Part shown: one piece after another, positions 7,292-63,063 of the stretch
How the letters are laid out: each line of letters opens with the position of its first letter
Numbering within the stretch: the stretch's first letter is position 1
DNA from: a virus
Strand: one strand, 5' to 3'
IMG/VR virus record: IMGVR_UViG_3300031787_000078
Location: 1,581 to 65,580 of that record
Length of the DNA stretch: 64,000 nucleotides
Notes under the pieces: generated by a model
Database searches by the model: none
The model's input: the letters and a program-made list of their open reading frames with translations, nothing else
Told to the model about the DNA's origin: nothing
Translations under genes and position numbers: made by a program

Positions 7292-7460
7292 GAGAATTTT
7301 CACAAAAAAACATATTTTAAGACATTTAGATGATATAGAAAAATATCTTGATGTCGATGCTGCATTTTTAACTGATAAATTCTCAAGAGATGTTTATCGG
7401 TTATTTAATGAAGGAAAATCCAAAGAAGAAATAATAAAATACATAAACGAAAACAAATGA
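7278..7460 (+). CDS. small hypothetical protein (60 aa)
   Basis: ATG ORF ending in an ATGA overlap with the glutamine synthetase start. Confidence 0.3.
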   Translation: MGFNKRIFTKKHILRHLDDIEKYLDVDAAFLTDKFSRDVYRLFNEGKSKEEIIKYINENK

Positions 7461-8581
7461 AAATTAAATTAGAATATGTTTGGCTTGATGGATATAGACC
7501 GGAGCCAAACCTTAGAAGTAAAGTTAAAATTGTTGAAAGTGAAGTTCCTATGGAATTAAATAATATTCCGGTATGGAATTTTGATGGATCATCCACTTCT
7601 CAAGCGGAAACAGGAAATTCAGATCGTCTTTTAAAACCTGTTAGACAGTATACAACACATGGGTTCCCATTCGTAAATGATACTGTATATGTATTATGTG
7701 AAGTATTAAATCCTGATGGGACCCCACATGAATCAAATAAAAGATCTCAGATTGGTGATAACTTTGAAGATCTTTGGTTTGGGTTTGAACAAGAATACTT
7801 CATACGTGAAGAGATTAACGGAAACATTTTAGGTCATAAAAGAAACATCCTTAAAGGACAGGGAGAATATTATTGTGGTGTAGGACATAATGTTGTTGGT
7901 CGTGATTTTGTTGAATCACACTTAGATATGTGTCTAAATTATGGGATTGATATTACCGGTACTAATGCTGAGGTTGCTTTAGGACAATGGGAATATCAAG
8001 TTTTTTCAAAAGGAAAATTAAAAGGTGGTGACGATCTTTGGATGACTCGTTATTTCTTATTCAAAATGGCAGAAAAATATGGTTATCATATTGAATTACA
8101 CCCTAAACCATTAACACACGGTGAGTGGAATGGATCTGGACTTCACACTAATTTCTCAACCGATACTATGAGAAATGATGGAAATGAAAAATATTTTATG
8201 GCTTTATTTAATGCATTTGAATCAAGACATCAAGATCACATCAAAGCGTATGGGTCTAATAATAATTTACGTCTAACTGGTGAATACGAAACACAGGCAA
8301 TTGATAAATTCAGTTGGGGTGTGTCAGATCGTGGAGCATCAATTCGTGTACCACAAGATACGGCAAAAGAATGGAAAGGCTACATTGAAGACCGTAGACC
8401 GGGATCAAATGCGGATCCATATAAAATTATTCGTGAGATTGTTAAATCTCTTGATGTTACAAAACAGATTTATGAAACAAAAATTATGATGACTAAATTT
8501 GTTGATATGGATGGATTAAGTGGTAAATACAATACTATATCAAGAGACGAATTATTAAACGTATATAGAGAAGAAGAATAA
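7457..8581 (+). CDS. glnII: glutamine synthetase, type II (eukaryote-like GSII)
   Basis: Colinear match to GSII signatures: WNFDGSST, LWFGFEQEY, YYCGVGHNVVGRD, GTNAEVALGQWEYQV, NGSGLHTNFST, GASIRVP, YIEDRRPGSNADPY. Confidence 0.92.
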   Translation: MKIKLEYVWLDGYRPEPNLRSKVKIVESEVPMELNNIPVWNFDGSSTSQAETGNSDRLLKPVRQYTTHGFPFVNDTVYVLCEVLNPDGTPHESNKRSQIGDNFEDLWFGFEQEYFIREEINGNILGHKRNILKGQGEYYCGVGHNVVGRDFVESHLDMCLNYGIDITGTNAEVALGQWEYQVFSKGKLKGGDDLWMTRYFLFKMAEKYGYHIELHPKPLTHGEWNGSGLHTNFSTDTMRNDGNEKYFMALFNAFESRHQDHIKAYGSNNNLRLTGEYETQAIDKFSWGVSDRGASIRVPQDTAKEWKGYIEDRRPGSNADPYKIIREIVKSLDVTKQIYETKIMMTKFVDMDGLSGKYNTISRDELLNVYREEE

Positions 8582-36018: not shown

Positions 36019-36430
36019 AATAATAAAATATACGTATGTCTTAGGTAATAAAGAATTGACTGTCCAACTTTGGGATAAAATGAATTTCCAAGAAACTAGA
36101 TGGGCGGTTAAGTTAACTTTGGAAGGAGTTAATGATTCCTCATCAAATGATGATTACCCTGCTTGGGATGTATTCTTTCTTGAAAGTAAATTAGAGGAAA
36201 AAATTAATGAGATATTATTCAAATATGAAATTGAATATGTTGCCGAAGATTTATCACATTTATTATTGGAGGACCCATCAGGATTAACTGAAGAACTTAT
36301 CAATAAAATAGATTTCTTTTTGGAAAAAAATTTAACTATTGATGATGTTTTAGATAATATAATTGATGTGGGCATTGAAAATATTACTATCTTTGAAAAA
36401 TATTTTTTGAAAAAACAAGAAAATGAATAA
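35996..36430 (+). CDS. hypothetical protein
   Basis: 144-aa ORF. Confidence 0.4.
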   Translation: MINLKDYKIIKYTYVLGNKELTVQLWDKMNFQETRWAVKLTLEGVNDSSSNDDYPAWDVFFLESKLEEKINEILFKYEIEYVAEDLSHLLLEDPSGLTEELINKIDFFLEKNLTIDDVLDNIIDVGIENITIFEKYFLKKQENE

Positions 36431-37406
36431 TAAAGAGAGAATTTTAAAGAAATTATTATTTGATATATTTGATAAATTAAGTAAAGATGCGGATGTATAT
36501 AATCATAACGGATCTTTATGGTTGATTAATACGGATAGTACAAGATGGATTTTTGAGTTTACCAAAAGTAAAACTTTATGGTATAATTATAATTTTTTTA
36601 GATCTGCTTTAAAATTTGTTTCTTTGGATGTTAATGAGGGTGATAACCAAAAATATATAACTGAATGGTTTGAATCTAGATACTTAAATATCAATCAGGT
36701 GAAACACACCCACTACCAAAATTTCAAGAAACGAGCTCAAGTTGAAGACACCATTCAAAATGGGGTGAAAGACACAAAATCCAATGTTCATCCTTATCCC
36801 AAAGAGGTTAGAGACACCATTCAAAATGGGGTGAAAGATATGAAAGAATCTCACTTTTATCGTAAATCAAGAATAACAGATGTTACTCAAGACGGAGTTA
36901 AGGAAACTGAATTACATAAAGGAGTTAGACCATCCGCAGTTGGAGATGCCATTCAAAATGGGGTGAAACGCACCTTACCTGAATCAATTCCCGATTCATT
37001 TGGTATTAACGATGCTATTCAAAATGGGGTAAAAGAAACAAAACAAAGGCAGAAGGTTTTTCAGTTTAGGGTTGATGGTACCATTCAAAATGGGGTGAAA
37101 GAAACCAAGAAAGGTATTGGAATCCCAAGTTCCAAAGTTGACGACACTATTCAAAATGGGGTTAAAGAAATTCAACCACTACCGGCTCAGGATGGTAATA
37201 TGGATTGGGGTTTATATTATCAAAGACAAGAAGACAGAACCAAACCACATATTGAATATGTTAGAGATGTGATTGAAGAACATCATCATAGAAGAAGAGA
37301 GGTGATTGTAACAATAAAAGATGGCGTAAAAGAAACTCACCAAGATTGTTCAAATAACACTGCAAGAGTTGAAGGTATAATTAGAGTTGGAGAAAAATTA
37401 GATTAA
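36423..37406 (+). CDS. repeat protein with about nine xIQNGVK(E/D)T units
   Basis: Repeats DTIQNGVKDTK, DTIQNGVKDMK, DVTQDGVKETE, DAIQNGVKRTL, DAIQNGVKETK, GTIQNGVKETK, DTIQNGVKEIQ, TIKDGVKETH separated by variable spacers. Confidence 0.5.
   Translation: MNNKERILKKLLFDIFDKLSKDADVYNHNGSLWLINTDSTRWIFEFTKSKTLWYNYNFFRSALKFVSLDVNEGDNQKYITEWFESRYLNINQVKHTHYQNFKKRAQVEDTIQNGVKDTKSNVHPYPKEVRDTIQNGVKDMKESHFYRKSRITDVTQDGVKETELHKGVRPSAVGDAIQNGVKRTLPESIPDSFGINDAIQNGVKETKQRQKVFQFRVDGTIQNGVKETKKGIGIPSSKVDDTIQNGVKEIQPLPAQDGNMDWGLYYQRQEDRTKPHIEYVRDVIEEHHHRRREVIVTIKDGVKETHQDCSNNTARVEGIIRVGEKLD
36745..37180 (+). repeat. imperfect tandem repeats (caccattcaaaatggggtgaaaga core) encoding the IQNGVKET motif
   Basis: Core 24-nt sequence recurs at about 36751, 36819, 36949, 37010, 37083, 37148 with degenerate copies beyond. 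Confidence 0.5.
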
Positions 37407-39444: not shown

Positions 39445-40167
39445 ATGAATTACGGAAAAGAATTTAGAAAATTCGCAAAGAGCGAAGGAATTAACTCACT
39501 GGTATTGGATCAGTTTGAGAATGGGTTAACACCATACATTTTGGAAGAACGAGAAATGAGAGCAACGCAAATGGATATTTTCTCCAGATTGATGCGTGAT
39601 CGTATCTTATGGGTGTCAGGACCTGTTAATCAATATATGTCTGATATTGTTCAGGCTCAATTATTGTTTCTTGATTCTGTTGAGAAAAAAGATATTACAT
39701 TATATATTAATTCACCTGGTGGGTCTGTATTATGTGGATTAGGGATTGTTGATCTTATGAACTTTGTAAATTCAGATGTTGCCACAACAAACATTGGGAT
39801 GTGTGCATCAATGGGGTCGGTATTGTTATCTGCGGGGGCAAAAGGAAAACGATCATCTTTAATCTATTCAAAAGTAATGACACACCAAGTAAGTCACGGA
39901 ACACAAGGTAATGTTCAGGACACACGTATTAACCAAATGGAGGCGGAGAAGTACAATTACGTTTTATTCAAAATGATTGCTGAGAATTGTGGTAGATCAT
40001 TTGATGAGGTGTTGGAGTTTTCAAGGAGAGATCGTTGGTATACTTCTGACGAAGCATTAGAATTTGGTTTGGTTGATGAAGTTATTGGTGTGGATAAGAA
40101 TAAATCCATTACACAAATGTTGGAAGGGTTTGATGATTATTATCAAAAAGAAGTAATGTCTAAATAA
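39445..40167 (+). CDS. clpP: ATP-dependent Clp protease proteolytic subunit ClpP
   Basis: INSPGGSV, catalytic Ser in GMCASMGSVLLSAG, His in MTHQVSHG, downstream Asp; colinear with ClpP. Confidence 0.9.
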   Translation: MNYGKEFRKFAKSEGINSLVLDQFENGLTPYILEEREMRATQMDIFSRLMRDRILWVSGPVNQYMSDIVQAQLLFLDSVEKKDITLYINSPGGSVLCGLGIVDLMNFVNSDVATTNIGMCASMGSVLLSAGAKGKRSSLIYSKVMTHQVSHGTQGNVQDTRINQMEAEKYNYVLFKMIAENCGRSFDEVLEFSRRDRWYTSDEALEFGLVDEVIGVDKNKSITQMLEGFDDYYQKEVMSK

Positions 40168-40804: not shown

Positions 40805-42712
40805 ATGTCTAAATTACTAAGAGTAATATTTACTTTATTTTTATTGACTCCGTTGTTTGTGTTTTCACAAGTACCTCAGGCACCTTCTAATGGTATCTGG
40901 GGTATAATTGATACACAATATCAAGTCGGTACAACTGCTCAGGGATCGACCCAAGCAAAAATCACTTTACAAAACACAACATTAACTAAGTACGCAGGTA
41001 CTCAGTTTAGAGTGTTTTATGACAACACAGCGTTCACAAACGCAACCGTATCATTGATTGGATCAACTACAAACCTCGATCTTCAATATACAACAAATAC
41101 CGCAAACGGATATATCACTATGACCTTAGTTTATACAGGTCCAAGTGCTACTTATACGTTGGCTAATGGTGAGAGATTTTTAATTACATTCACTCATGCG
41201 GCTCCTGCGGTGTTTAATAACTTGGCATCAATTTCACCACTTACTTGGTCAGGTGCTCAGGTGTTCCCAACATACGCAGCTAAACAAGATGGGATGGACA
41301 CAACATTAAGTGTACATAATTATGGAGGTAACTTCACATTTCAAAACTTCCAATATGCTGGAACATTTACAAACGTAACAGGGTCACCGGCTAAGTATTT
41401 AAATTTGGCACTTCAAAGAAGACCACAGACAGGAGGTTCGTGGGCACAACACTCCACTTATTCAACAGATATAAATGGTAACTTTTCAATATCGGTTCCA
41501 TTAGATACTACGTATTGGGATGTTCGTTTGGCAATCCAAGGAGATACAATGGGTGTTGGTAATATTATTTCATCAACAGATGCCCAACAAGTTAATCAAT
41601 GGGTATTAGGTAATGGTACAATGACAGGATTTGACTACTACACTGCAGATGTAAATAATTCGGGTAATATTACAATTTCAGATGTATGGGGTGTATTCGG
41701 TAGAGTATCTGGTAGATTCACACAATGGCCAAATAACGTTAAAGATGTAAAATTCTTTACCGCATCTGAATACTCAACAATCAACGGATCCAACACAAAC
41801 TACACTCAAACTATTCCTGGTGTAACAAACTTTACATTTGAAATTATTGCGGGTCAACCATCTTCAGTAACATATTATGTTATGGTTCCTGGTGATGCTA
41901 ATGGTACAGGATATCATATGGCACGTGTTACTCCAATTGAAGTATTAGTAGGACCAATACCTGGTTTAGAATCACAAATTTATAATGTAATAGATACTAA
42001 AGTTGAATATGATTTCCCAACTCAAACAATTGAAGTTAATGTACCACATATTTCAGTTGATGCTGGTAATTTAGTTAACCTTCCCGTGAAAGTATTTACA
42101 AATGGTATAGAATTATCTTCGTTACAGTTTGGTTTAAAATACAATACAGACCTATTGGAATTCAAAGGAGTTATTGCAAGTGAAAATGCGATGAAGTGGA
42201 TGTCTTATGTTAACCCAAATGGTAATCAAATTGATTGGGGTGGATTTGATGTAACAAATAATCAACAAACGCTTAAGGATGGTGATGAAGTTGTAACATT
42301 ACAATTCATAGCAAAACAACCACAAAACTTATGGGAAGAAAGTCCTTTATATACTTCATTAAAATTTGCGGGAACCACAGAATCTAATGACTTAACAATT
42401 ACCCCAACTAACGGAATCTTACAAGTATTAAAAAGTAATATTGGTGAAGTAATTGGAAATAGTATAGAAGTGTTTCCTAATCCATTTGTTGAAAATGTAA
42501 CAATAACATTTGAAGTAAAAGAAACGACAAACGCAAATCTTTCGGTTTATGATGTTGTAGGTAGAAAAGTTGTTACTATCCTTGAAGGTCAATTACCTGA
42601 TGGAACATATAATTACAATGAAAACTTAGGACAATTAGAACCAGGACTTTACATAGTAACCTTAAATATGGACAATGAAAGTCCAAAGTTTGAGAAAATT
42701 GTAAAACAATAA
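40805..42712 (+). CDS. secreted protein with T9SS (Por) C-terminal sorting domain and EF-hand/dockerin-like Ca loop
   Basis: Signal peptide MSKLLRVIFTLFLLTPLFVFSQ. C-terminal VFPNPFVENVTITFEV…LSVYDVVGRKVV…GLYIVTLNM matches the Por_Secre_tail pattern. Internal DVNNSGNITISD loop. Confidence 0.8.
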   Translation: MSKLLRVIFTLFLLTPLFVFSQVPQAPSNGIWGIIDTQYQVGTTAQGSTQAKITLQNTTLTKYAGTQFRVFYDNTAFTNATVSLIGSTTNLDLQYTTNTANGYITMTLVYTGPSATYTLANGERFLITFTHAAPAVFNNLASISPLTWSGAQVFPTYAAKQDGMDTTLSVHNYGGNFTFQNFQYAGTFTNVTGSPAKYLNLALQRRPQTGGSWAQHSTYSTDINGNFSISVPLDTTYWDVRLAIQGDTMGVGNIISSTDAQQVNQWVLGNGTMTGFDYYTADVNNSGNITISDVWGVFGRVSGRFTQWPNNVKDVKFFTASEYSTINGSNTNYTQTIPGVTNFTFEIIAGQPSSVTYYVMVPGDANGTGYHMARVTPIEVLVGPIPGLESQIYNVIDTKVEYDFPTQTIEVNVPHISVDAGNLVNLPVKVFTNGIELSSLQFGLKYNTDLLEFKGVIASENAMKWMSYVNPNGNQIDWGGFDVTNNQQTLKDGDEVVTLQFIAKQPQNLWEESPLYTSLKFAGTTESNDLTITPTNGILQVLKSNIGEVIGNSIEVFPNPFVENVTITFEVKETTNANLSVYDVVGRKVVTILEGQLPDGTYNYNENLGQLEPGLYIVTLNMDNESPKFEKIVKQ

Positions 42713-42733: not shown

Positions 42734-43078
42734 ATGTCAGAAGAACAAACACAAGAAACGAACGACGGAACTTGGTCAGGATTGAAAAAAACAATCATTG
42801 GAACATTAACAACGGTAATTGCTGGTGGCGGAGTATGGGTAAGTACATTGATATTCGGTGGTGGTGATGAACCTACTGAAGAAACAAAAACTGAACAAGC
42901 GGCACCTGCATCACAACCTGTGATTAATCTTAATGTACAACAAAACCAAGAAAATAAACAAAAAACTGAGAACAATAACGGTGGTGGTGTAGTTCGTGAA
43001 AGAATTATTGAAAGACCTGCACAACAACCACAACCACAACCTGAAAAACCAAAAAAGGTTGAGGAAGAATCTTGGTAA
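42734..43078 (+). CDS. hypothetical membrane-anchored low-complexity protein
   Basis: One TM helix (IIGTLTTVIAGGGVWVSTLIF) then a Q/P/E/K-rich tail; preferred over the overlapping minus-strand ORFs because of strand bias and packing. Confidence 0.45.
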   Translation: MSEEQTQETNDGTWSGLKKTIIGTLTTVIAGGGVWVSTLIFGGGDEPTEETKTEQAAPASQPVINLNVQQNQENKQKTENNNGGGVVRERIIERPAQQPQPQPEKPKKVEEESW

Positions 43079-43103
43079 TAAACAATTAAAATAAAACAAA
43101 ACA

Positions 43104-43484
43104 ATGTCATTTTTAAAAAACCTTTTTAGTGGTGGATCGCAAGAATTCACAAAAGTTGAGAACGATCAAAGATTTAACTTTATGTTACAACAAATGCAAG
43201 GAAACAGATGGAAGATTACTCTTATCATTCTATTAACTTTCTTCTTTATAATTTTCGGTATTGTATTATCGGTAATGTTTAAAGCTGAAATTCAAGAATC
43301 TTGGAAAGAGTTACTTTTATTATTGTTAGGTGCATTCGTTGGTAACTTAAATAAAGTTATTGACTTTTGGTTCTCTAATGAAGATAGAGATAAAATGTTA
43401 GTTCAAAAAATGGATGAGGAAGATAACGTCTCAAAACCGGATTTAGAATCATACGAAGAACCAACTGAAGAAATAGAAGGATAA
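43104..43484 (+). CDS. hypothetical membrane protein
   Basis: 126 aa, two TM helices. Confidence 0.45.
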   Translation: MSFLKNLFSGGSQEFTKVENDQRFNFMLQQMQGNRWKITLIILLTFFFIIFGIVLSVMFKAEIQESWKELLLLLLGAFVGNLNKVIDFWFSNEDRDKMLVQKMDEEDNVSKPDLESYEEPTEEIEG

Positions 43485-44224
43485 TGAAAAAAATATTTTA
43501 CATATTACCTTTTTTTTTAATAGGTTGTAAAACTTTACAGGCCCAGCCCCCTCAAAATGGAGGGGGTATTGGTTCTGTAAAAACTGAACAGTATCAAGCA
43601 GAATTTGAAAAAAAACAATCAATTACAGAAGTTGCGGAATATACTGATACAATACAAGTTCCAATACAATTATTAAAAATTGGTATTAACGAAGAATTAT
43701 ATGAATTGTATCCTGAACTTAAAGACAAACGTGTAGGTTTAGGTGTTACAAACATTGTAATTGAATATTTGGAGTATACGGGTAGATTTGTTTTTACCGA
43801 AGAAAAGGAAGACATCAAACAACGAATGATTGCTCAGGATAAAGCATCTGACAAAGGGATCTCGGTTAATAAAATTGATGTAAAAGGAAATGTAATCTTA
43901 GCAAAATACTTTGTTTATGTTGAGGTATATGACTTTAGTGTATCGGAAGATGAGGTGGTTAAAGTTAACGGTCAACAAACAACAACACAGACCACAAGAT
44001 TAGGATTACAAATTAAATTCGTAGATGCTGAAACAAGTCAAGTGATCGTAGGATCTGGATTGGGTGAGGCAAGTACGGTAAAAACCTCAAATTTATTAGG
44101 GGACATTTCTGATGATGTTAAATTTAACCAATCAACAATTGGTATAACAACAAAGAAGGCGTTGGAAACGGCATCTTCAAGGGTAGTGACACGACTTATT
44201 TCAAAAGGTGTCTTTAAAAATTGA
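43484..44224 (+). CDS. putative lipoprotein
   Basis: MKKIFYILPFFLIGC signal/lipobox. Confidence 0.5.
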   Translation: MKKIFYILPFFLIGCKTLQAQPPQNGGGIGSVKTEQYQAEFEKKQSITEVAEYTDTIQVPIQLLKIGINEELYELYPELKDKRVGLGVTNIVIEYLEYTGRFVFTEEKEDIKQRMIAQDKASDKGISVNKIDVKGNVILAKYFVYVEVYDFSVSEDEVVKVNGQQTTTQTTRLGLQIKFVDAETSQVIVGSGLGEASTVKTSNLLGDISDDVKFNQSTIGITTKKALETASSRVVTRLISKGVFKN

Positions 44225-45852
44225 AATTAAATGTATTCATACTATTGTTCTTTTGCGTGTTTAGGTTCTTAAACCTAAATGCGCAAACTTACAATTATAG
44301 TTATTCCGATCCATGTACAGGCAATTTAAAAACAATAATAGTACCTATTAACGGAAGCGTAACAGTTTCATATTATGGATCAATCGCATCGTTTACTCAA
44401 AACGATTTCACAAACGGAACATTTGATGCTTGGACTAGTAACATATTTTCACAATATGGAACAAATAGTCCTTGTTCGGAAATAGTGGGGTTGGGTACGG
44501 CAGTTAACGTAACCCAAAATACTGCATTAAATGTTATTGGAATTCTTAACTCACTCTCAACAATATCTGATTTGGCAGCAGGATCTACTAATATATTAGG
44601 TGGATCTGTTACGTCTATTAATAATGCTGGAGGAAATAATAATTCTAAAAATAACAAAGGAGGGAATAATTCCCAAAATGGAAGTGGAGGTAATACAACA
44701 AATACTAATAACACCACAACCAATAATAATCAAAATCAAACAAATGGGACAAGTAACACTAATGAAGGAAGTACAACCAATTCTGGAACAAATGAAACAA
44801 GTTCAAACGGAGGAAATGGAGCCCCTAATTCAAATGTTGGAAATGAAAATTCAACACAAGCAGGAGGAACTACAACTCAAGGTGGATCAAATGAAAATGG
44901 AAATACATCGTCTAGCACGACTGTAAATGGGGAAACTCCCAACAACCAAACTCAAACAACAGGAGGGGAAACATCTGAAACACCAATAAACAATGAAACA
45001 ACAACTGAAAATGGAAATAATATCGGCAACACTGGCAGTGGTAATAACGGGAACACTGGTAATAATGGGAATGGTGGGTCTGGTTCAGGAAATAATCAGA
45101 CGGAAGAAAATAATGCAACACCTGAAACAACAGAAGAAAAAGGACAGACAAATATAACAGGAGGTGCCACAACCACAGTTAGATCAACACCAACAAGTAA
45201 AGAAGGTGGAAAACCCACTGTAGTGGGAAGTGCGGATTTTATTGGTTTTAATTTTAAAAATTCTGAAGTTAAAACAGGATTGAAGTTAACTGGTGGGTAT
45301 ACCGCAATGAGATGGGACGGTAAAAGAAGTTCAGGGTGTTTAGTTGATTATACTTCAGCACTTAGAGGACCAAACATTACAGGTTTTTATGCGTTCATTA
45401 GACCTAAATCTATTGTATTAGGGTCAGGAACATTAACGGTTGGATTTGAAGGTAACAAATCATTATATGGTACGATTGCTTTAGGACAAATGTTTACATT
45501 TAAAAAACCTAAATCCCTTAAACTTCTTTACATGGCGACTGTATCTTATGGTCAGGTCTATAGAGAATCGTTTTTAGGTACTGCCGCTATTGTGGGGGGG
45601 ACATATGATTTTAGTATTGGTAAACGATTTGATGTAAAATTAATGAACTTATTTGTTTACGCTCCTTATGTTAGTTATTATAATGATGTGGTATTGAAGT
45701 CACCTTATGTGATGTTACCAAGTATTGGTACAAATATAAAATTAACGAAAAAGTTTAAATTTAACATAAATGCAGGTGGTGCTTGGGATTTAAAAACAAG
45801 TGCTTTAAATTATACAGTAACGTGTGGAACAAGATTATTAATTGGACAATAG
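44221..45852 (+). CDS. secreted protein with N/T/G-rich low-complexity region and C-terminal beta-rich (possibly outer-membrane barrel) domain
   Basis: TTG start gives signal peptide MKLNVFILLFFCVFRFLNLNAQ; aa ~130-320 are N/T/G/S low complexity; the C-terminal ~250 aa show alternating hydrophobic beta-strand-like patterning. Confidence 0.45.
   Translation: MKLNVFILLFFCVFRFLNLNAQTYNYSYSDPCTGNLKTIIVPINGSVTVSYYGSIASFTQNDFTNGTFDAWTSNIFSQYGTNSPCSEIVGLGTAVNVTQNTALNVIGILNSLSTISDLAAGSTNILGGSVTSINNAGGNNNSKNNKGGNNSQNGSGGNTTNTNNTTTNNNQNQTNGTSNTNEGSTTNSGTNETSSNGGNGAPNSNVGNENSTQAGGTTTQGGSNENGNTSSSTTVNGETPNNQTQTTGGETSETPINNETTTENGNNIGNTGSGNNGNTGNNGNGGSGSGNNQTEENNATPETTEEKGQTNITGGATTTVRSTPTSKEGGKPTVVGSADFIGFNFKNSEVKTGLKLTGGYTAMRWDGKRSSGCLVDYTSALRGPNITGFYAFIRPKSIVLGSGTLTVGFEGNKSLYGTIALGQMFTFKKPKSLKLLYMATVSYGQVYRESFLGTAAIVGGTYDFSIGKRFDVKLMNLFVYAPYVSYYNDVVLKSPYVMLPSIGTNIKLTKKFKFNINAGGAWDLKTSALNYTVTCGTRLLIGQ
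44611..45181 (+). repeat. low-complexity (Asn/Thr/Gly/Ser-rich) coding region
   Basis: GGNNNSKNNKGGNNSQNGSGGNTTNTNNTTTNNNQNQTNGTSNTNEGSTTNSGTNETSSNGG…. Confidence 0.5.
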
Positions 45853-45860
45853 TATTATTG

Positions 45861-47513
45861 ATGTTATTTTTTGTGTCCTTCTTTGGATTGGGCCAAACAT
45901 TTACCTATTCTGGTTACATTTATAATGCTGATGGGACAGGTGCGGTAAATGTACCTGTTAAGTTGTATAAAAGAACTACACCCGTGATGAATGGGTTTAC
46001 GTCACAAACTAATTATAACGGACATTCATATTATCGATCAACAGGGGTTGCGACTTGGACGACAGCAAAAAGTGCGTGTGAGGCAATGAATGGTCATTTA
46101 GCCACAATATCGAATGCCTCAGAAAATACATTTCTTTTTAATACGTGGCCTTCAGGTTGGATTGGGTATTATCAAGACCGTGTAGCAGGATATACCTATT
46201 CAGAACCAACGGGTGGATATAGATGGACAGAAACTCAAGTTACAAGTGGTTTAGATGCTGACTATGATGTATCATCTTATACATCAGGACCAACTTTAGT
46301 TGATATCAAATCATCAATTAATGCCACACTATATAATTCTCCGACCTATTCAAGTACGGGAGGTAAATACTTAACATTCAATGGTTCTAATCAATATGCG
46401 ATAACTAATAACTTAGCTTCAAAATTCACATCAACCGCAATATCAGTAGTTGCTTGGATTTATCCAACAGGAAATGGGGTGATTGCATCTGAATTAAATA
46501 TCCCAAGCACAACATCAGGTTGGCACGAATCAATTATAGAAATTACAGGGTCAAATACCTTAAGAGTTGGGTTTTGGAACGGTACGGGTATTACGCAATT
46601 AAACACTCCTATTACACTTAATACATGGAATATGGTTTGTATCACTTATGATGGAACCACAATGAGAGGTTATTTAAATAATGTGAGTTTTGGAAGTGTA
46701 AACTTTTCTCGACAAGCGGCATTTATACATGGAGGAAATGGTCAACAACATTTCGCATTTGGATTAAATGATGCAACCAATATGGGTTCAGGTGCATTTG
46801 GGTCGTTTAGATTAGGTGACATCCAATTTTTTGACCGAGCAATTACCGTAGATGAAATTGATAGAACATTTAATTTATATGCTTATAGATATAGAACAAA
46901 TCAATATACTAACTGGAATCCTGGTGAACCAAATGATTCGGGTGGTGAGGATTATACACAATTTGTGGGTGGTGGTAAATGGAATGACTTACCCGTAAAT
47001 TATAGTTTCCAATACGTAATTGAGTTTGATTATATTGTTGATTATACACCATGGGTTTTATTTCAAACGGTATACACTAACTCATCAGGATACTATAGTT
47101 TTTCACAACCAACGAATCCTGCAGTAGAATGGTACTTACAATACGATGCACCAACACCAGTTACGACTTTACAAATAACAGACATGGTTGAAGTGTCTAA
47201 ATTGGTTTTAGGTATTACACCAATTAAAAGTATTCATTATCACAGATATGATGTTAACTATGATGGTAAAATAAATGTTGCTGATGAAAACTACATAAAC
47301 TTAAGAAGATATAATTTTTTTAATAGTTGGGTAACGATGTCACCTGCTAGATTATTTACACCGGCACAATACACAACATTAACAACAAATACAACAGATT
47401 TAAGAGTAACTATTCCTGGTGTATCATCTATAACAATAAACTCACCTGTAAGTGGAGGTTCGCAAAACTACTACTTAATAGCTCCGGGTTATAAAACAAC
47501 TGTAAACTATTAA
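45861..47513 (+). CDS. secreted C-type lectin-like protein with nested LamG (concanavalin-like) insertion and EF-hand/dockerin-like loop
   Basis: CTLD N-half WTTAKSACEAMNGHLATISNASENTFLFNTW…WIGY and C-half NWNPGEPND…EDY…KWND with EPN/WND Ca-sugar motifs and only one Cys; about 250 aa between the halves looks LamG-like (VVAWIYP…WHE…VCITYDGTTMRGYLNNV); DVNYDGKINVAD loop. Start uncertain: track TTG 45783, GTG 45822 or ATG 45861. Confidence 0.55.
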   Translation: MLFFVSFFGLGQTFTYSGYIYNADGTGAVNVPVKLYKRTTPVMNGFTSQTNYNGHSYYRSTGVATWTTAKSACEAMNGHLATISNASENTFLFNTWPSGWIGYYQDRVAGYTYSEPTGGYRWTETQVTSGLDADYDVSSYTSGPTLVDIKSSINATLYNSPTYSSTGGKYLTFNGSNQYAITNNLASKFTSTAISVVAWIYPTGNGVIASELNIPSTTSGWHESIIEITGSNTLRVGFWNGTGITQLNTPITLNTWNMVCITYDGTTMRGYLNNVSFGSVNFSRQAAFIHGGNGQQHFAFGLNDATNMGSGAFGSFRLGDIQFFDRAITVDEIDRTFNLYAYRYRTNQYTNWNPGEPNDSGGEDYTQFVGGGKWNDLPVNYSFQYVIEFDYIVDYTPWVLFQTVYTNSSGYYSFSQPTNPAVEWYLQYDAPTPVTTLQITDMVEVSKLVLGITPIKSIHYHRYDVNYDGKINVADENYINLRRYNFFNSWVTMSPARLFTPAQYTTLTTNTTDLRVTIPGVSSITINSPVSGGSQNYYLIAPGYKTTVNY

Positions 47514-47514
47514 C

Positions 47515-47964
47515 ATGAAAAATTTATTATTTACCTTGATATTGTTATTTCCGTTTTTTATCTTTTCACAAGAATGTGTTAAGGTTGATACGGTATTTGT
47601 AACGGCAAAACTAAGAGAACTTGGATCAAGAGACATTAGATTTGGTATTAAACAAATAGTTGAGGAAGAACTTTCTCAGAAGTTTTGTTTATCTGATGAT
47701 GGGGAATCTGTAAAAGTTGAAGTTTTTTATTTTGGATTACCAAAAACAACAATTAGAGTTGTTGGGGTTGAAAAAACTAATACAATAACTCAAGTGGGGG
47801 TAAAACTTCACTACAAAGGTAATTGCTATGAAGGTATTGGAGAATCGGATACTGAGATCAGGGCAATTATGATTGAAGTTAAAGAAGGAACAATTCCATT
47901 TGAAAAAATGACCGTATCAACAGCACTTAAAAAAGCAATACACGAAGCGGCAATTAAGTTATGA
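47515..47964 (+). CDS. secreted hypothetical protein
   Basis: Signal peptide MKNLLFTLILLFPFFIFSQ. Confidence 0.45.
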   Translation: MKNLLFTLILLFPFFIFSQECVKVDTVFVTAKLRELGSRDIRFGIKQIVEEELSQKFCLSDDGESVKVEVFYFGLPKTTIRVVGVEKTNTITQVGVKLHYKGNCYEGIGESDTEIRAIMIEVKEGTIPFEKMTVSTALKKAIHEAAIKL

Positions 47965-48416
47965 AAAAATTATGGATAGTTTTATTGTTTTTATTCACTT
48001 CAATATATTCGTTTGGACAGTTAACTGTTACCGATGTAGGGGATGGATGGAAAAACAAAGTTGATAGTGCGTTAAAAATAATTCAAACTTACGATATTGA
48101 AAAATATAATGTAATACTTGAAACTTGTACTCTCATTGGATATTGGAATGAATCTTTTTCAACAACTGAAGGTGATTCTGTTATTTTAATATCAGTAAAA
48201 GATATGAATAACACAAGTATTAATAATATTGCGGCAATTTTAGTTCACGAATCTTTACATTTATTTATAAAACAGATGTATACCAAACTTAATCCTAATA
48301 AAGAAGAAACTATGTGTTATGCTTATGAATTAAATTTTCTACAAAAAATACCAAATGTTGAAAAATGGTTAATTGATAATGCAACAACCAAAATAAAATA
48401 TTATTCATCACAATAG
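47961..48416 (+). CDS. secreted protein with HExxH motif (possible small zinc metallopeptidase)
   Basis: Signal peptide MKKLWIVLLFLFTSIYSFGQ; ILVHESLHLF contains HESLH. Confidence 0.35.
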   Translation: MKKLWIVLLFLFTSIYSFGQLTVTDVGDGWKNKVDSALKIIQTYDIEKYNVILETCTLIGYWNESFSTTEGDSVILISVKDMNNTSINNIAAILVHESLHLFIKQMYTKLNPNKEETMCYAYELNFLQKIPNVEKWLIDNATTKIKYYSSQ

Positions 48417-62031: not shown

Positions 62032-63063
62032 TTGTCAACAGCGAGACCTTTTGCATATAATACGGGATCCACAATATCGGGGACAATACAATTGGGTGAT
62101 CTTGCAATTGGTGTAGATCCTTTGGACTATCCTGGTGGTGTTGGTGGTGTAAGATGGTGGAATGGTCCTGATGAAGATTTGGGATATATAATATGTAGAC
62201 CAAATTTAAATGGTAACCAACCAAATCCCGACAATGATCCTGCTTACATTCGATTTTTAAGATCCAAATTAAAAACAGAGGATTCTTTTGTAAATTTAAC
62301 TAATACAGTTTTTGGGCAGTCATTTACAAACGGGAACGATTGTAAAAGTTATTTAGATTCAAATGGGTATTGGAATTCTTGGATTGACACTAGTCCAACA
62401 CCTACACCAACTCAAACCATTACACCAACTATAACTGTAACTCCAACTATAACTGTAACTCCAACCAATACAATAACTCCAACCAATACAATAACTCCAA
62501 CAAAAACTATAACACCAACCAATACAACAACTCCAACAAAAACTATAACACCAACAGTTACACCAACCAATACAATTACGCCAACAGTTACACCAACCAA
62601 TACAATAACCCCATCAACATCCCCTTCACCATCTTCGGCGGTAACATTCTTACAAACATTTACATCAGGGGTGGCACCTGGAACAACAATAGAAAATGCT
62701 TGGACAACATTTAGAGCACAGTTAACAGGAACATATACTAAATTTGATTTTACAAGCTCTAATGGTCAAGGATATACAGGGATTACAGATGCCGTCAAAG
62801 TTCAACAAATTGCAAATGCTTTACGTACTGGAACAACAGGAGTTACATTGGCGGTAACAATTAGTGGTGTGACTTGGAATGTTGGGTGTTGTACTTGTAG
62901 ATCTGGTGGTGCTATTAACGGAGCTGTTGAGTTCGCAAACGTGGCACTTTGTAGTGGTAGTAGTACCGCAGCATTAAGACCATTTATAAATAACAGTAAC
63001 TGGGGTGGTATTGGGTCAACAGTAGGTGCTGCCACACAAACATTAACACTTAAATTTTATTAA
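62032..63063 (+). CDS. hypothetical protein with Thr/Pro tandem-repeat linker
   Basis: TTG start (no in-frame ATG for >100 codons). N-terminal domain, then TPTPTQTITPTITVTPTITVTPTNTITPTNTITPTKTITPTNTTTPTKTITPTVTPTNTITPTVTPTNTITPSTSPSPSS, then a Gly/Thr-rich C-terminal domain. Confidence 0.45.
   Translation: MSTARPFAYNTGSTISGTIQLGDLAIGVDPLDYPGGVGGVRWWNGPDEDLGYIICRPNLNGNQPNPDNDPAYIRFLRSKLKTEDSFVNLTNTVFGQSFTNGNDCKSYLDSNGYWNSWIDTSPTPTPTQTITPTITVTPTITVTPTNTITPTNTITPTKTITPTNTTTPTKTITPTVTPTNTITPTVTPTNTITPSTSPSPSSAVTFLQTFTSGVAPGTTIENAWTTFRAQLTGTYTKFDFTSSNGQGYTGITDAVKVQQIANALRTGTTGVTLAVTISGVTWNVGCCTCRSGGAINGAVEFANVALCSGSSTAALRPFINNSNWGGIGSTVGAATQTLTLKFY
62393..62640 (+). repeat. tandem DNA repeats (18/30/36-nt units) encoding the TP-rich linker
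   Basis: actccaactataactgta x2, actccaaccaatacaata x2, ~36-nt unit x2, ccaacagttacaccaaccaatacaat x2. Confidence 0.6.

Follow-up and report, generated by a model that had tools for sequence, protein, structure and literature searches.

C-type lectin domains (CTLDs), LamG domains, cohesins, dockerin-like modules and the sorting domains of the type IX secretion system (T9SS) are all known, and a lectin and a cohesin protein are already annotated in the genome of Flavobacterium phage vB_FspM_immuto (160 kb). Here we describe a phage gene in which a CTLD, a LamG domain and a dockerin-like module occur in a single protein with a signal peptide. The gene lies at 45822-47513 in a 64,000-nucleotide stretch of viral DNA (positions 1,581 to 65,580 of IMG/VR record IMGVR_UViG_3300031787_000078; this whole stretch is called the window below) and belongs to a module that also encodes a cohesin/T9SS protein at 40805-42712. 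All features of the lectin gene and its module given below are on the plus strand.

Immuto is the closest cultured relative of the window. Its gene 13 (QQO91931, 'lectin C-type domain-containing protein'), which forms a module with genes 14-19, encodes the same scaffold and a Cys-poor CTLD with EPN, EDY and WND motifs behind the same type of signal peptide, and the module comprises the same set of exported proteins, including one with cohesin and T9SS domains. The gene 13 protein differs in being shorter (332 residues), in having a TGEP turn in place of the LamG domain, and in being only 45-47% identical to the window protein. The lectin gene opens the module in immuto, whereas in the window it follows the gene at 44221, and the cohesin protein is split over two immuto genes.

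More distant systems resemble parts of the locus. Compared with animal Ca-dependent carbohydrate recognition domains, such as those of mannose-binding protein (MBP), CD23, ASGPR, langerin and DC-SIGN, the window CTLD retains only the first canonical cysteine, carries a 221-residue domain in its long-loop hairpin, is itself nested, and belongs to a phage-encoded protein that a bacterium exports. The LamG domain shares its fold and Pfam family with other Laminin_G_3/ConA-like jelly rolls, among them domain 4 of the GH43 arabinanase AbnA, the receptor-binding fragments of clostridial neurotoxins, trypanosomal sialidase and LamG domains of phage structural proteins, but it sits inside another lectin domain and not in tandem. 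As in cellulosomal and non-cellulosomal cohesin-dockerin systems, one gene combines cohesin domains with a surface anchor, and several co-encoded proteins carry a Ca-loop helical module on different payloads. However, this helical module scores below the dockerin threshold, has one intact Ca loop where cellulosomal dockerins have two, and has a beta-sandwich and a C-terminal beta region joined to it. Unlike in cellulosomes, the anchor is a T9SS sorting domain instead of an SLH or sortase type, no enzymes are included, the system is phage-encoded, and the docking is putative. RemA of Flavobacterium johnsoniae is a T9SS-secreted, mobile cell-surface lectin adhesin. It is analogous in role, as a lectin brought to the Flavobacterium surface through the T9SS, but it is a host protein of another lectin type with its own T9SS sorting domain and no known sequence relationship to the window protein.

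Literature searches on phage-encoded T9SS cargo, on cohesins or dockerins in jumbo phages and on C-type lectins in Flavobacterium phages returned no relevant paper. A Lectin_C domain split by LamG, nesting at three levels or a phage module with a scaffolded payload slot was found neither in the literature nor in the 80 best bacterial loci or the 50 listed BFVD matches.

A C-type lectin domain with a nested LamG domain

The lectin gene codes for 563 residues from a GTG start, the end coordinate including the stop codon; residue numbers below follow this 563-residue protein. The open reading frame had been listed as 45783-47513 from a TTG codon. The start was moved to the GTG at 45822 because the homologs begin with MWNKII..., which matches that GTG in the DNA. 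Its first 31 nucleotides are shared with the end of the upstream gene. More than 120 full-length homologs have 67-95% identity. Full-length relatives lie on IMG/VR viral contigs as long as 373 kb and on contigs from metagenomes that reach 338 kb.

A preliminary description of the locus, made from its sequence, proposed a single CTLD with intact sugar/Ca motifs that is interrupted by a LamG-like domain of about 250 residues. The interruption is borne out both by a profile match of the spliced sequence and by natural orthologs that have no insert. In the native protein the Pfam profile Lectin_C (PF00059, gathering score 22.6) matches the N-terminal half only, at profile positions 4-58 of 107 and with 34.4 bits. 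When the insert (residues 138-358) is spliced out, the match runs end-to-end over positions 4-104 of 107, with 43.6 bits and an E-value of 5.5e-11; the gathering score is exceeded in both cases. A search with this profile on both halves had been proposed as a check: the C-terminal half on its own gives 14.4 bits (E 0.065), and it is in the spliced sequence that both halves are covered. A phmmer search of the spliced CTLD against the PDB found CD23 (E 1e-14) and MBP-C (E 7.6e-13, aligned over its full length), and in these alignments the EPN motif, the downstream Glu and the WND motif coincide with those of MBP-C and CD23.

The N-terminal half of the CTLD (45993-46232, residues 58-137), delimited by the Lectin_C match to positions 4-58, the AlphaFold model and the CTLD alignment, comprises beta1, alpha1 with Cys86, alpha2, the WIGY strand, a remodelled loop and the YRWTE strand. 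The C-terminal half (46896-47033, residues 359-404), delimited by the spliced Lectin_C match and the PDB alignments, contains YTNW, EPN (nucleotides 46926-46934), Glu376-Asp377-Tyr, WND (nucleotides 46980-46988) and the beta5 strand YVIEF. All CTLD motifs quoted in the preliminary description were found in the sequence, namely W79...A82...C86, GHLATISNASENTFLF, WIGY113, NWNPGEPND with EPN at 369-371, EDY at 376-378 and WND at 387-389. The principal Ca/sugar site (Ca site 2) has all five of its ligands: Glu369, Asn371, Glu376, Asn388 and Asp389. Of 291 relatives, all have WND and 290 have EPN, the sole deviant being a variant with QPD. The CTLD is also the most conserved segment of the lectin protein, with a mean pairwise distance of 0.22, compared to 0.58 for the dockerin-like part.

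The loss of three of the four canonical cysteines, with EDY in place of EDC, was likewise seen correctly. The whole protein has two cysteines, C86, which is the canonical Cys1 and invariant in the family, and C273 inside the LamG domain. Of the four cysteines that form the two disulfides of a canonical CTLD (C1-C4 and C2-C3) only C1 is present; Tyr378 replaces C2, Ile400 replaces C4, and Cys3 is absent too. Many bacterial Lectin_C domains in genomes also lack canonical cysteines, so the loss is no bar to membership of the bacterial branch of CTLDs; judged by these sequences, the cysteine depletion is nothing special. In a search of representative proteins the lectin family fell into few clusters at 50% identity (330, 558 and 776 residues), and the top of the list was dominated by multi-CTLD proteins. 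Apparent split CTLDs in bacterial genomes were dismissed as candidates, since the long CTLD matches proved to be tandem CTLD repeats, and insert and scaffold were both absent from the 80 best bacterial loci.

The nested LamG domain, a ConA-like jelly roll, occupies 46233-46895 (residues 138-358) and ends in a connector helix (343-357). In the native protein it matches Laminin_G_3 above the gathering score (E 6.1e-14), and it has the jelly-roll fold of ConA-like lectins/glucanases; the nesting thus stands as proposed, but the insert measures 221 residues and not about 250. The immuto gene 13 protein aligns to window residues 11-148 and 362-557 at 45-47% identity with nothing in between, and more than 100 such uninserted proteins of about 332 residues occur in metagenomes. 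These orthologs have the same CTLD with the four-residue turn TGEP at the position of the insert, and in a joint alignment they and canonical CTLDs align to both halves of the window CTLD. The insert replaces a short turn of the long-loop region, which is TGEP in the orthologs, resembles DGS in animal CTLDs and lies between the 'W-x-W' strand and 'Y-x-N-W...GEPN'. In the inserted forms the loop directly before the insert is remodelled, from WIGLTDEVVEGQWRW to WIGYYQDRVAGYTYSEPxGGYRW. The deviant mentioned above is a distant inserted variant, the metagenomic P0352 (776 residues), which has QPD for EPN, keeps the canonical Cys2 (ENFC) and carries a second LamG domain at its C-terminus.

Structure prediction had been suggested as a check on whether the CTLD re-forms around the insertion. 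A first AlphaFold run, based on close inserted homologs only, gave a predicted local distance difference test score (pLDDT) below 50 at residues 58-137 and 360-406, all other parts being folded. With 64 uninserted orthologs and 35 canonical CTLDs added to the alignment, the second model reached a pLDDT of 87.8. It has the secondary structure elements in the order expected of a CTLD, that is beta1, alpha1, alpha2, the WIG strand, the W-x-W strand, LamG, beta3, beta4 and beta5, and shows the double-loop alpha/beta fold with paired N- and C-terminal strands.

Outer scaffold, cohesin protein and gene module

The CTLD is itself an insertion. The regions that flank it form a scaffold of about 190 residues, in which a beta-sandwich is followed by a dockerin-like helical module (one Ca loop) and then by a C-terminal beta region. 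The first sandwich strands are at 45894-45992 (residues 25-57; modelled strands 26-34 and 45-52, pLDDT about 95) and the remaining ones at 47034-47156 (residues 405-445; strands 412-418, 424-430 and 435-442, pLDDT above 90), both assigned from the second model and from profile alignment with hhalign. The helical module follows at 47157-47321 (residues 446-500; helices 452-462, 470-476 and 486-496), and the C-terminal region at 47322-47510 (residues 501-563) has one helix and beta strands with pLDDT 83-97 and is homologous to residues 310-368 of the cohesin/T9SS protein at 40805. In the immuto ortholog the sandwich region gives weak SdrD_B and CarboxypepD_reg matches.

The same scaffold occurs uninterrupted in the 40805 protein, at residues 180-368 (nucleotides 41342-41908). 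By BLASTP, lectin residues 411-556 resemble residues 213-363 of that protein (E 1e-9), and the N-terminal lectin strands 25-51 weakly resemble its residues 180-206, directly upstream of this match. With the CTLD and LamG columns removed, hhalign aligned lectin residues 24-57 plus 405-563 to residues 180-368 of the 40805 family over 184 columns with a probability of 100% and an E-value of 1.8e-39, and the alignment passes straight over the splice point. Because of this contiguity, and of the high-confidence strands 26-34, 45-52 and 412-442, we assign the CTLD as an insertion in a loop of the sandwich. The protein thus has three levels of nesting, with LamG inside the CTLD and the CTLD inside a sandwich loop of the scaffold.

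The preliminary description had noticed a perfect 12-residue Ca-binding loop shared by the lectin and its T9SS neighbour. The loop is indeed present in both proteins, as DVNYDGKINVAD in the lectin (nucleotides 47250-47285, residues 477-488) and DVNNSGNITISD in the neighbour (nucleotides 41648-41683), and the pattern D.[ND].[DNS]G.[IVL]...D matches exactly these two sites in all six-frame open reading frames of the window (30,161 residues; mean of shuffled sequences 0.03). However, the part that the proteins share is not the loop alone but a homologous module of about 185 residues. Within the loop, positions 3 and 12 never vary, and at least 90% of the sequences retain the residue at position 1.

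The 40805 protein (40805-42712, 635 residues) is the candidate partner of the lectin. It consists of a signal peptide, a weakly cohesin-like N domain, the scaffold, a cohesin domain (nucleotides 42029-42328, residues about 409-508) and a T9SS type A sorting domain (nucleotides 42470-42709, residues 556-635). Its description as a T9SS protein is upheld by matches to Por_Secre_tail (E 3.8e-11) and TIGR04183 (43.7 bits, cut-off 23). The Pfam profiles Cohesin and Dockerin_1 also gave matches in it. The family profile of the cohesin domain matched the cellulosomal type I cohesins 6kg8, 2vn5 and 1g1k in the PDB over their full length, with E-values of 3e-4 to 5e-3, and the N-domain profile gave a single match, to a ScaC cohesin (E 0.1). 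The protein corresponds to a fusion of immuto genes 14 and 15. In immuto one protein (gene 15) is the anchor, with cohesin and sorting domain, and two others (genes 13 and 14) bear the scaffold.

Both proteins have export signals. The lectin starts with a Sec signal peptide of the signal peptidase I type (45822-45893, residues 1-24, MWNKIINWTIVLLMLFFVSFFGLG/QTF) that is conserved across the homologs; its predicted cleavage exposes Gln25, the site having been inferred and not taken from a predictor. Q25 is invariant in 121 sequences, and Gln is the predicted +1 residue of all six module proteins that have a signal peptide. Gln at +1 after signal peptidase I cleavage is the Q-rule of Bacteroidetes (PMC5837995), which has already been noted for proteins of Porphyromonas phages (PMC10367356).

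The module has 7-8 genes, the order of which is kept in immuto and in about 60 viral and metagenomic loci, on contigs of up to 373 kb, in differing flanks. It runs from the cohesin/T9SS protein through one or two small transmembrane proteins, a conserved exported protein or lipoprotein and a protein with a linker and a beta-rich part to the lectin and two small exported proteins. Between the cohesin protein and the lectin the window has four co-conserved genes (42734-45852), recognised by synteny with immuto and with about 50 IMG/VR and metagenome loci, and for these no family match was found in Pfam, PHROGs or NCBIfam. The first two, at 42734-43078 and 43104-43484, encode proteins with one and two transmembrane segments, respectively, and charged tails, which have a holin- or spanin-like look. 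The third (43484-44224), an exported protein or lipoprotein, is the most conserved gene of the module, with 57-94% identity over nearly all loci and 37% in the most divergent one (L041). Its N-terminus allows two readings, a lipobox (LIGC) and a signal peptidase I site that exposes Gln, and its family profile found no match in the PDB. A CsgG-like motif in this protein was dropped from consideration when a profile search gave it no support. The fourth gene (44221-45852) encodes an exported protein of 543 residues with a signal peptide, a conserved N domain of about 130 residues and a low-complexity linker of about 200 residues rich in N, G, T and S. Its C-terminal part of about 210 residues is beta-rich with the alternation of hydrophobic and polar residues seen in outer-membrane beta-barrels. 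The protein is conserved in every copy of the module.

Beside the lectin position lie the conserved genes of the two small exported proteins (47515-47964 and 47961-48416), both with Gln at the predicted +1 position; the second matches phrog_1365, of unknown function. Some neighbours of the module vary. In close relatives an endolysin with GH19 and PG_binding_1 domains is encoded directly upstream of it (L002, 3627-4457), which is found neither in the window nor in immuto. A secreted nuclease with a signal peptide adjoins the lectin gene in immuto (DNA/RNA endonuclease G; L001, 7388-7966) and in some jumbo-phage relatives (Endonuclease_NS; L002, 11771-12268), and is absent at the corresponding position of the window.

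The lectin position is a variable slot. In most jumbo-phage loci it holds the CTLD with nested LamG. In four loci (L133-L136) the same scaffold carries an unrelated domain of about 200 residues, nested at the same sandwich loop; this domain has the motif FNFFGNNYTQFYVGSNGWIGF (for instance L133, 2700-3872), no Pfam match, and is found on viral contigs that reach 252 kb. In L137-L144 (e.g. L139, 5464-6540) a Cys-rich N-terminal domain of about 170 residues precedes an uninterrupted scaffold, which implies that a payload can be attached in tandem as well as by nesting. There are also mosaics such as P0229, in which the flanks are 64-83% identical to immuto and the N-terminal half of the CTLD is 88% identical to that of the window protein. 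Among 30 distinct loci the scaffold distances track those of the other module genes (r 0.65-0.80); for the CTLD and LamG the correlation is lower (r 0.24-0.50). To judge from these sequences, the CTLD and LamG payload evolves and recombines independently of the scaffold. An alignment of the scaffold only was too divergent for scanning viral contigs.

Possible roles of the lectin protein

The sequence comparisons establish how the domains are nested, that the sugar/Ca site and the signal peptide are conserved, that the module is syntenic and that its payload is exchangeable. In the explanation that we favour, with a rough probability of 0.55, the lectin would bind glycans with the help of Ca while docked on a cohesin partner that is anchored through the T9SS, and the module would decorate the surface of the infected cell. 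The lectin would be exported during infection by the Sec pathway of the host, after which cleavage by signal peptidase I would expose Gln25. Its dockerin-like scaffold could dock on the cohesin domain of the co-encoded partner, which the host T9SS would take to the cell surface and anchor there. With Ca, the CTLD would bind glycans of the mannose, GlcNAc or glucose type, in which the 3- and 4-hydroxyls are equatorial, and the LamG domain may offer a second binding surface or act as a spacer. The purpose may be to change what the infected cell surface adheres to, or what adheres to it, either for adhesion or aggregation or to mask surface glycans and so hinder the adsorption of further phages.

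Several observations weigh against this explanation, in which the function of the lectin protein is inferred from sequence. The main gap concerns its passage across the outer membrane, which the proposal leaves unexplained: no T9SS sorting domain (TIGR04183 or PF18962) was found in the lectin with Pfam and NCBIfam profiles. The label 'dockerin-like' denotes a resemblance only. Dockerin_1 (PF00404) scores 16.9 bits with the whole protein and 20.0 bits with the C-terminal fragment, both below the gathering score of 22.9, and the family profile matched solved dockerins with E-values of 0.01-0.05. True dockerins have two Ca loops, of which the second (477-488, D-x-N-x-D...D) is intact here and the first is reduced to D454 at the start of a helix. 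On the partner, Cohesin (PF00963) reaches 23.9 bits, just under the gathering score of 24.1. Mirror-tree analysis of co-variation gave no specific signal for the dockerin-like part with the cohesin at the C-terminus: the partial r of this pair is 0.31, and the values with the N domain (0.56) and the sorting domain (0.62) are higher. As to the binding site, the inserted forms appear to have lost two ligands of the auxiliary Ca site 1, judged from the joint alignment and the residue numbering of MBP-A. Finally, the CTLD was modelled with confidence only once canonical CTLDs had joined the alignment, and at a predicted template modelling score of 0.60 the model does not fix how the domains are placed relative to each other.

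A broader version of the favoured proposal is that large phages of Flavobacteriia, of the jumbo and immuto type, carry a portable, cellulosome-like kit for surface display. This would consist of a T9SS-delivered cohesin anchor and a dockerin-like scaffold slot whose binding domains (CTLD, CTLD with LamG and two unrelated ones) were inserted or exchanged by recombination, and would re-program the binding properties of the infected cell before lysis. We put this forward as a tentative and somewhat doubtful generalisation.

Three other functions can be considered. The first is that the protein acts in the periplasm as a binder of envelope or peptidoglycan, the EPN-type CTLD recognising GlcNAc strands or lipopolysaccharide precursors, so that the module would serve envelope remodelling or lysis. 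The presence of a Sec signal only, with no outer-membrane targeting signal, the holin- or spanin-like appearance of the two small transmembrane proteins and the endolysin gene directly upstream of the module in close relatives fit such a role. However, the adjacency of the endolysin is not conserved, as its absence from the window and immuto illustrates, and the module always includes the T9SS-sorted cohesin protein, which points to the cell surface. Known lysis cassettes, moreover, have no need of a dockerin-like scaffold with exchangeable payloads. We consider a periplasmic role unlikely.

The second is that the protein belongs to the virion, as a receptor-binding or decoration protein in which the CTLD and LamG domains act as adhesins on a tail fibre or the capsid. 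LamG jelly rolls are common in phage structural proteins, the top BFVD matches include a cyanophage virion structural protein, and tblastn found a match annotated as 'baseplate wedge subunit'. The CTLD fold is also known from phage receptor-binding domains, as in Mtd of Bordetella phage BPP-1. A virion protein is difficult to reconcile, however, with a cleavable signal peptide that has Gln at +1 in all homologs. The gene is surrounded by replication, nucleotide-metabolism and auxiliary genes and not by structural genes, and its direct neighbours encode exported or T9SS-sorted proteins. Moreover, the CTLD is the best conserved part of the protein instead of a hypervariable tip, and no repeat of the template/variable (TR/VR) type touches the gene. 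A place in the virion is therefore rather improbable in our view.

The third retains the lectin fold without the function: the CTLD and LamG domain would be protein-protein or structural modules, and EPN and WND a Ca site that has been kept without sugar binding. Many CTLDs indeed bind no sugar, the loop beside the insert is remodelled with the apparent loss of the two site 1 ligands, and three of the four stabilising cysteines are absent. Yet Cys-poor CTLDs are common in bacteria, and all five Ca ligands of the sugar site are kept in about 290 relatives. The lone deviation among these is QPD, the classic switch of specificity, and this would be difficult to account for if no sugar were bound. 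We hold the chance that the protein is no lectin to be small.

A variable protein of a diversity-generating retroelement (CLec fold, Mtd type) was rejected within the window, where no direct repeat of at least 40 nucleotides touches 45822-47513 (the window was not searched for a reverse transcriptase) and the CTLD is the most conserved region.

Phage, host and biological meaning

The window is a piece of a jumbo phage, as follows from the occurrence of lectin relatives on contigs of up to 373 kb and 338 kb and from the kinship with immuto. Three features, the T9SS sorting domain next to the lectin, the Gln-exposing signal peptides and the relationship to immuto, point to a host among the Bacteroidota. 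The G+C content is about 30%, nearly all coding is on one strand, and no tRNA genes were found in the 64 kb. Elsewhere in the window the phage encodes an Hsp70/DnaK (23858-25714, E 3e-259), a glutamine-synthetase-like protein (7457-8581), an RNA ligase (20756-21886), ClpP (39445-40167) and ThyA. Two open reading frames contain repeats: an 18-nucleotide tandem repeat in 8 copies (62376-62597) lies in that at 62032-63063, and a 66-nucleotide periodic repeat in 5 copies (36735-37174), equivalent to 22-residue repeats, in that at 36423-37406.

Intermediates of the three-level nesting survive in related phages, which allows a direct comparison of the scaffold when it is contiguous, when it carries a CTLD and when that CTLD contains LamG. 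That the long-loop hairpin of a CTLD tolerates an insertion of 221 residues while the sugar site is conserved is of use to lectin engineering. The gene points to a module that is conserved, abundant and so far undescribed, through which large phages of Bacteroidota would export lectins and cohesin/dockerin-like proteins by way of host secretion. A cultured system for the display model exists in immuto and Flavobacterium sp. LMO8, which the GenBank record of the phage gives as its host. If that model is true, phages would use the T9SS of their host to modify the surface of the infected cell with exchangeable binding domains.

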